Shown: one piece after another, positions 41,036 to 42,195 of the stretch
Position numbering within the stretch: the stretch's first letter is position 1
Layout of the letters: each line of letters begins with the position of its first letter
DNA from: Eledone cirrhosa
Lineage: Eukaryota
Length of the DNA stretch: 64,000 bases
Assembly: GCA_964016885.1 (NCBI GenBank)
Contig: OZ024745.1
Coordinates: 116,436,001 to 116,500,000, forward strand
Reading direction: 5' to 3'
Made by a program: the position numbers and the translations under genes
The notes under the pieces: model-generated
Database searches by the model: none
Seen by the model: only the letters and a program-made list of their open reading frames with translations
What the model was told of the DNA's origin: nothing

Positions 41036-42195
41036 ATTAAAAATTAGAATTGGAGCTCTGAAATAGCAATATATATATGGATGTATATATAATGTATTTT
41101 GCAATACACTTTATGCTTAATTAAAAGCATTTTGAAGACCGTAAGCTATTGTTTTTTAAAGTAGTGACAAATTCACTTACTTTGATCTCAGCATAAAGTG
41201 TATTGCAAAATACATTATATATACATCCATATATATATATTGCTATTTCAGAGCTCCAATTCTAATTTTTTATTTCTGCCTGACCAACAACTGCTCTGCA
41301 TAATCAGCTACTGATTATTTACTAGAAATCTATAAGAATATAACATCAGTGATCTTGGTAGACAGGTGGGAGTAGTTAGCCTTGATAAGCTTCAACAAAA
41401 GCGAAACAAGACCTTGTCGGCTTATCTCCCCTGTTTGCTGAGATCAAAGTAAGTGAATTTGTCACTACTCTAAAAAGCAATAGCTTACGGTCTTCAAAAT
41501 GCTTTTAATTAAGCATAAAGTGTATTGCAAAATACATTATATATACATCCATATATATATTGCTATTTCAGAGCTCCAATTCTAATTTTTAATTTCTGCC
41601 TGACCAACAACCGCTCTGCATAATCAGCTCCTGATTATTTACTAGAATTCTATAAGAATATAACATCAGTGATCTCGGTAGACAGGTGGGAGTAGCTAGC
41701 CTTGATAAGCTTCAACAAAAGCGAAACAAGGCCTTGTCGGCTTATCTCCCCTGTTTGCTGAGATCAAAGTAAGTGAATTTGTCACTACTCTAAAAAGCAA
41801 TAGCTTACGGTCTTCAAAATGCTTTTAATTAAGCATAAAGTGTATTGCAAAATACATTATATATACATCCATATATATATTGCTATTTCAGAGCTCCAAT
41901 TCTAATTTTTAATTTCTGCCTGACCAACAACCGCTCTGCATAATCAGCTCCTGATTATTTACTAGAATTCTATAAGAATATAACATCAGTGATCTCGGTA
42001 GACAGGTGGGAGTAGCTAGCCTTGATAAGCTTCAACAAAAGCGAAACAAGGCCTTGTCGGCTTATCTCCCCTGTTTGCTGAGATCAAAGTAAGTGAATTT
42101 GTCACTACTCTAAAAAGCAATAGCTTACGGTCTTCAAAATGCTTTTAATTAAGTATAAAGTGTATTGCAAAATACATTATATATACATCCATATA
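41036..42195 (+). mobile_element. Family D retrozyme-like tandem: inverted partial unit (41036-41193) plus ~3.1 units of 320 bp, in (TA)n
   Basis: CTTGATAAGC at 41381, 41701 and 42021; AGCA microhomology at the inversion junction. Confidence 0.9.
41378..41422 (+). ncRNA. Hammerhead ribozyme, U3-A8 core (family D); further copies at 41698-41742 and 42018-42062
   Basis: AGCC-TTGATAA-GCTT-CAACAA-AAGC-GAAA-CAAG(A/G)CCTTG-TC^-GGCT. Helix I is extended by GATCT.GGTAGACAGG..GGAG / CTCCCCTGTTTGCTGAGATC. Confidence 0.85.

Follow-up and report, generated by a model that had tools for sequence, protein, structure and literature searches.

The 64-kb window, by which we mean the whole stretch of DNA analysed, is AT-rich eukaryotic DNA with abundant microsatellites. 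A tandem array with a period of 320 bp extends from 41190 to 42200 (3.2 copies, 98% matches). The original prediction had recognized this tandem but assigned to it the span 41036-42195, of which 41036-41193 is an inverted arm lying outside the tandem. Array and inverted arm are together referred to as locus A, which is one of four family loci (A to D) within the window. Locus A is composed as follows.

40999-41037, no strand: (TA)n tract at the left junction, the likely insertion target
41036-41193, minus strand: inverted arm, a 5′-truncated copy of the 3′ half of the unit without a hammerhead, 156/158 identical to the units
41190-41272, plus strand: partial unit preceding unit 1
41273-41592, plus strand: unit 1, 320 bp
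41593-41912, plus strand: unit 2, 320 bp
41913-42200, plus strand: unit 3, terminating in the short TA run of the unit itself, which meets the genomic (TA)n
42178-42302, no strand: (TA)n tract at the right junction

Units 1 and 2 differ at 6 of 320 bases, and units 2 and 3 at 1 of 288. The inverted arm and the direct part share four bases (41190-41193) and are joined head to head, so that the locus terminates on either side in a 3′ end of the unit, next to (TA)n. When unit 2 was read as a circle on both strands, the longest stop-free frame was 42 codons, and thus the unit has no ORF. An unrelated two-copy tandem at 58117-58755 also has a period of 320 (92% matches) and gave no hammerhead match in our scans.

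All three units harbor a TTGATAA core, each with a 4-bp helix I, a 4-bp helix II and a GUC cleavage triplet, in agreement with the core, intact helices and GUC site of the original prediction. Positions within the hammerheads follow the usual numbering scheme. The motifs and their predicted products are listed below.

41350-41446, plus strand: hammerhead 1 with long helix I, core 41382-41388, predicted cut after 41418
41670-41766, plus strand: hammerhead 2 with long helix I, core 41702-41708 (U3 = 41702, A8 = 41707), predicted cut after 41738
41990-42086, plus strand: hammerhead 3, core 42022-42028, predicted cut after 42058
41419-41738, plus strand: predicted self-cleaved monomer 1, 320 nt
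41739-42058, plus strand: predicted self-cleaved monomer 2, 320 nt

The type I hammerhead core is present in 3/3 units with complementary bases at positions 3 and 8, and the three helices are arranged with helix I open, the latter of which consists of 4 bp followed by an internal loop. The two predicted monomers are identical (320/320), in agreement with the 320-nt product and the three cleavage sites that had been proposed. A descriptor left free at positions 3 and 8 matched the window five times, whereas 60 dinucleotide shuffles gave 0.033 matches on average and never more than 1, and a family pattern matched five times compared with 0 in 100 shuffles; the motifs are therefore not chance occurrences. 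Rfam returned nothing in the window at the gathering score. Below the threshold only Hammerhead_HH9 (RF02275, clan CL00010) appeared; the hammerheads of the units match this model over its full length (E 0.004-0.005) but are non-members by Rfam's rule (22.8-23.4 bits against a gathering score of 52). Standard searches thus miss these motifs, as had been anticipated for CUGANGA descriptors.

The other three family loci are located as follows.

31323-31884, plus strand: locus B, with inverted arm 31323-31468, direct part 31474-31884 and core TTGATAA at 31686
18431-18660, plus strand: locus C, with core CTGATGA at 18478, GUC, and a helix III shorter by 3 bases
55596-55875, minus strand: locus D, with core CTGATGA at 55771

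Locus B is organized like locus A, with an inverted arm and a direct part, and loci C and D are single truncated copies terminating in (TA)n. The homologues had been predicted near 31681 with TTGATAA, and near 18474 and 55733 with CTGATGA. All these cores were found. The direct copy of locus B carries GAC in place of GUC at the cleavage site (U16.1 lost); its own inverted arm (31430-31468) retains GUC. In locus D, helices II and III are broken and the cleavage triplet is GUU. Consequently only loci A and C are intact, B and D being decayed at catalytic positions. The sequence changes of helices I and III between the homologues are as described originally. An additional 3′ fragment of the family is located near locus D (55251-55332, plus strand), and a long near-perfect inverted repeat with a central CTGATGA (31040-31260), possibly a fold-back insertion, lies directly to the left of locus B. 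The best conserved part of the 320-bp family is a small hairpin just downstream of helix I (41767-41788), with homologues at 18540, 31401, 31751, 41161 and 55685.

At least five hammerhead families are present in the 64 kb. A second tandem family with a period of 479 lies in (TA)n at 24436-30817, where two arrays of 2.5 and 10.9 copies meet at ~25613 (99% matches). Its unit carries a minimal C3-G8 hammerhead with a 4-base palindromic helix III, as well as the word TAAGTAAGTG, which is similar to that of the hairpin described above and could be a helper-element signal. A diverged 479-bp copy (~11760-12240) is situated just past a decayed PLE-type frame. Hammerhead-like motifs with a long helix II and a TATATA helix III occur at 13943 (+), 38457 (+), 33027 (-) and 33062 (+), of which the last two stand back to back on opposite strands. 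Motifs of other families are found at 32616 (-), 56212 (+), 8160 (+) and ~42834 (+), and flanking sequence is common to those at 8160 and 42834.

Loci A and B have U3-A8 cores and loci C and D have C3-G8 cores. Among five distinct rows of the family alignment the pair 3-8 is UA in three and CG in two, and no row is mismatched, which supports the view that U3-A8 is a compensatory core variant. We then compared the possible groupings of the four loci: informative sites favored AB|CD by 11, including positions 3 and 8, against 4 and 3. This grouping was still the best after exclusion of positions 3 and 8 (AU p 0.962 versus 0.039 and 0.039), while the KH and SH tests did not reject its alternatives (p 0.06). 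The two U3-A8 loci are 78% identical to each other, and the C3-G8 copies are 66-70% identical to locus A. The family had been said to toggle between C3-G8 and U3-A8; because the loci split as AB|CD, a single switch is enough, and repeated toggling was discarded as unnecessary. A single change of the core from C3-G8 to U3-A8, in the common ancestor of A and B, is likely, and the new pair would have been retained since then.

In the hammerhead fold, 86.7% of the 165 cells of the five distinct rows are paired, and 12 of the 33 pairs have changed on both sides. The covariation score, although inflated by kinship, was reached by none of 500 shuffles, and all six slid controls were lower. In addition, two raw-read runs and two contig sets were aligned to 41593-41860 at a likeness of at least 80%, which yielded 2495 and 2024 unphased reads and 1006 and 11 contigs; at this cut-off most C3-G8 copies, with their 66-70% identity to locus A, are dropped. 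Only 48/2495 and 39/2024 reads are at least 99% alike, and thus the reads describe relatives and not the array copy. Both sides of the helix II pair 41711/41720 co-change (207/583 and 196/579 reads in X10; 179/461 and 179/455 in X11), 41671 G>A is coupled with 41765 C>T, and changes at 41701 with those at 41739. Three G·U pairs (41677, 41679 and 41681) become Watson-Crick pairs in reads, which points to an RNA of the plus strand. The commonest read changes are C>T and G>A. Listed changes at 41731, 41732 and 41733 fall in the center of helix III with indels nearby, and two of them would break the palindrome if they occur alone, the reads being unphased.

Mismatched cores as common as paired ones had been named as a sign of neutral decay. 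No core change appeared among the 40 of 173 variant rows listed, which represent mostly U3-A8-like reads and extend down to ~6% in the hammerhead region. Across the 98 positions of 41669-41766, the listed rows comprise 18 variable sites, 0 of which fall on the 12 core sites (P = 0.074). A contig of run X4, which bears another organism label, has 8 differences, all matching listed non-core rows. Another X4 contig was set aside, as no more than 3 of its 5 differences were assignable to rows. The original prediction had also taken the double substitution as pointing to selection for catalysis. As one event the substitution is thin evidence alone, but compensatory changes have kept the helices both in the window and in the reads, and the 320-bp family is probably under selection for cleavage.

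Helix III of the hammerheads is formed by a palindrome.

41726-41737, plus strand: 12-nt perfect palindrome constituting helix III, predicted self-duplex -19.5 kcal/mol, no stable hairpin alone

The palindrome is perfect in units 2 and 3 and is broken in unit 1 by G>A at 41411. Locus B has a palindrome of another sequence; in its inverted arm the palindrome is again perfect and differs from that of locus A in four letters. The predicted self-duplexes reach -19.5 (A) and -20.1 kcal/mol (B arm), and the corresponding hairpins 0 and -1.8 kcal/mol. Of these four letters, two fall in the loop of the monomer and remain complementary, which is relevant only in a dimer. When two units were folded together, the double hammerhead was predicted at -139.0 kcal/mol versus -119.1 kcal/mol for two monomeric hammerheads; the predicted inactive state, at -142.5 kcal/mol, is favored over the double hammerhead by 3.5 kcal/mol, in a model that ignores tertiary contacts. 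The palindromic nature of the 12-nt helix III makes dimeric cleavage likely on the folding model. For the array copy itself, we give cleavage in vitro as a dimer about an even chance. The dimeric hammerhead model has been published (PMC4209133; PMC3088659; PMC6765202). According to the available text of the respective sources, PLE hammerheads cleave weakly even as dimers (PMC4209133), and 8 of 9 Xenopus dimers did not cleave (bioRxiv 10.64898/2026.07.22.740005).

What kind of element carries this hammerhead? As far as the available texts describe them, Penelope-like insertions form partial tandems with an adjacent inverted 5′-truncated copy and a (TA)n bias (PMC8557442), and non-LTR retrozymes are ~300-bp tandem units with a type I hammerhead and a GC content below 45% (PMC7229834). 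The loci in the window show the same insertion traits, namely 5′ truncation, partial tandem, inverted arms (A and B) and junctions with (TA)n. Like non-LTR retrozymes, locus A consists of three consecutive 320-bp units with a complete type I motif and is devoid of coding capacity (longest frame 42 codons), and the family is dispersed in many copies (four loci in 64 kb; 2495 + 2024 reads and 1006 contigs). The 320-bp tandem is likely a non-autonomous Penelope-type retrozyme, and as to the kind of element our confidence is high. No ORF with reverse transcriptase and GIY-YIG domains was found in or beside any of the four loci, and within the window we found no pLTR of an autonomous partner sharing the 320-bp unit. 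Distant blastn of unit 1 against phage records gave no match, and the family pattern had 0 matches in viral contigs. A metagenome scan for the pattern downstream of the hammerhead returned two loci, which were dismissed as chance since they showed no similarity beyond the pattern.

The window contains decayed frames of a protein family of ~700 residues at 102-862 (-), 10329-11559 (+) and 36986-37090 (-), which we take from their motifs to be PLE reverse transcriptase-endonuclease; none of them touches the 320-bp family. This protein family has 117 relatives, the best of which is 57% identical. Pfam returned no family for frame 21-512 and nothing below E 0.03 for five full-length relatives, and no sequence match was found in the PDB for P0005 of this family. 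Two related non-LTR retrotransposon copies are located at 14245-17414 (+) and 8261-9688 (-), whose endonuclease and RVT_1 frames are disrupted by a stop and a frameshift.

The unit might instead be the pLTR of an autonomous Penelope-like element, in which case the array would be a 5′-truncated insertion product and the hammerhead would serve the life cycle of the parent. The partial and 5′-truncated state of all four loci, with inverted arms in A and B, agrees with this explanation, as does the derivation of retrozymes from PLE terminal repeats (pLTRs) stated in the available text of bioRxiv 10.64898/2026.07.22.740005. However, three head-to-tail units without any ORF remnant between them argue against it; furthermore, 41 full-length PLE-type proteins matched no family locus by tblastn, and the sequences beyond the ORF ends at 11580 and 36986 differ from the 320-bp unit. 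We consider a pLTR unlikely. Still less probable, in our judgment, is that the hammerhead is a dead or dying relic, whose U3-A8 pair arose from two ancestral transitions and whose copies were amplified by tandem duplication at the DNA level without cleavage. Such a relic would be compatible with the loss of catalytic bases in B and D, the broken palindrome of unit 1, the predominance of C>T and G>A in the reads and the inactive fold at the predicted minimum. It is difficult to reconcile with compensatory changes occurring at matched frequencies among U3-A8-like reads, with a palindrome preserved across four changes between A and B, and with U3-A8 being kept in two loci that are 78% identical and in the X4 contig.

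Overall, the array is probably best explained as a Penelope-type retrozyme, with multi-unit transcripts that would be self-cleaved in the form of a double hammerhead. In the proposed course of events, the plus strand would be transcribed through at least two units, and the palindromes of two neighboring hammerheads would pair to create two active cores, each cutting after GUC. The monomer would be ligated into a circle, in which a predicted competing helix would tie up the core and protect it from being cut again. An autonomous Penelope-like element may then provide the reverse transcriptase and endonuclease that copy the RNA into (TA)n, yielding partial tandems with an inverted arm.

The competing helix was predicted in each unit and is given here for the second one.

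41699-41732, plus strand: predicted competing helix, in which 41699-41704 (helix I strand, U3, U4 and G5) pairs with 41727-41732 (5′ half of the palindrome)

In its minimum fold, the monomer is predicted to form this helix and not the hammerhead. The helix spans 8 bp in B, 6 bp in units 2 and 3 and 4 bp in both unit 1 and C, and is absent (0 bp) from the decayed locus D; the pair probabilities are 0.65 in unit 1, 0.999 in units 2 and 3, 0.997 in B, 0.989 in C and 0 in D. In the 320-nt circle the predicted probability is 0.999. RNAalifold, unaided, picked its inner three pairs. Within this helix, the third base following GAAA is the partner of position 3; the pair they form is U-A in A, U·G in B and C-G in C. 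One pair further out, A has C-G, and B and C have U-A. Swapping the core in silico abolished the competing pair at position 3 in unit 2 (probability 1.00 before, 0.00 after), reduced it in C (0.99 before, 0.29 after) and left it at 1.00 in B. As for changes in the reads, the competing helix tolerates both 41701 C>T and 41732 C>T, and is interrupted beyond its fourth base pair by 41731 G>T (13% and 9%). A helix of 4 bp arises in 5-10% of random palindromes, one of 6 bp in ~1% and one of 8 bp in ~0.1%. Core pairing of any kind was predicted at >0.9 in 4/78 closed phage hammerheads; for B it dropped to 0.66 in a shorter window. That the core is predicted to be paired was itself rejected as evidence for a lock, being too common among other hammerheads (>0.5 in 32/78 phage motifs); weight was given solely to this particular helix and to its covariation.

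The competing helix may be a selected lock, although we regard this as doubtful, the proposal resting on three loci of common descent and on folding energies. Position 3 would then tentatively have two partners, position 8 in the active fold and the third base of the palindrome in the off fold. A helix of 4-8 bp burying U/C3, U4 and G5 would possibly, on the same predicted folds, keep the circular monomer uncut, and it is conceivable, if no more probable, that only the pairing of two palindromes opens it, with core, helix I, lock and palindrome forming one constraint network. We lean slightly towards another explanation, that the competing helix is a by-product: helix III would have arisen, and later been re-copied, by local template switching from the strand of helix I and core, with no need for selection of a lock. 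In support, the 3′ half of the palindrome in A repeats, in direct orientation, the short stretch of helix I and core, and in B it nearly does. Core bases 3-5 are also frequently predicted to be paired in other hammerheads, with a probability exceeding 0.5 in the same 32/78 phage motifs and reaching 0.94 in the unrelated 479-bp family, and the unrelated hammerhead at 56212 has 4 such pairs. On the other hand, the U·G wobble at position 3 of B agrees better with stepwise change at the RNA level than with copying; 41698 A>G, an allele seen in 36% and 42% of the reads, lengthens the competing helix while weakening helix I; and none of the 78 closed phage hammerheads reaches 4 competing bp.

If the competing helix is a selected lock, it would offer a testable answer to how retrozyme circles escape self-cutting, may explain why some natural dimers cleave poorly in vitro, and would represent a catalytic core base coevolving with an inhibitory fold. 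Viroid monomers conceal their hammerheads in other folds. The idea that the ribozyme is on in the multimer and off in the circle is stated in the available text of PMC4209133. Among the openly readable papers searched, we found no earlier description of a competing helix with covariation at position 3.

A U3-A8 hammerhead in a Penelope-type repeat is already known, and the present work adds one family. Several natural examples of the U3-A8 covariation, with a citation of earlier activity in vitro, are given in the available text of Perreault et al. 2011 (PMC3088659). Within one Penelope family (Cercyon PLE homology), U3-A8 was reported beside C3-G8 with ~1,300 matches versus ~2,000 min-HHRs, as far as the text of Cervera and de la Pena 2014 (PMC4209133) is available. 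CUGANGA descriptors and Rfam thresholds undercount U3-A8 hammerhead elements. In viral loci, we counted 4 distinct closed U3-A8 hammerheads among 120, versus 74 C3-G8 among 126, with 9 and 3 of 64 parts scanned, respectively. The four U3-A8 hammerheads of viral contigs (L048, L092, L093 and L111) are well-formed, each with a helix I of 6 bp.

Finally, we compared the 320-bp family with known systems as presented in the available texts. Animal non-LTR retrozymes (PMC7229834; bioRxiv 10.64898/2026.07.22.740005) are likewise ORF-free tandem units of ~300 bp with one type I hammerhead each and low GC, at least two consecutive complete motifs are common to both, and the dimer-assisted cleavage of the axolotl repeats is predicted here as well. 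In contrast to these retrozymes, the family described here has a U3-A8 core, a 12-nt palindromic helix III and a long covarying helix I, and is known from DNA alone. The Cercyon min-HHRs of Schistosoma mansoni (PMC4209133) share with it a short helix I, a palindromic helix III, the dimer model and nearby motifs in inverted pairs. Unlike in the min-HHRs, helix III is not minimal here (4 bp plus a 4-base loop), helix II has 4 bp without a bulged base, and no linked reverse transcriptase-endonuclease frame was found. The natural U3-A8 hammerheads (PMC3088659) display the same covariation and include repeat-type motifs whose loop III is fully paired in the dimer; position 3 is not linked to helix III in the available text of that study, whereas in the 320-bp family the predicted folds link the two.
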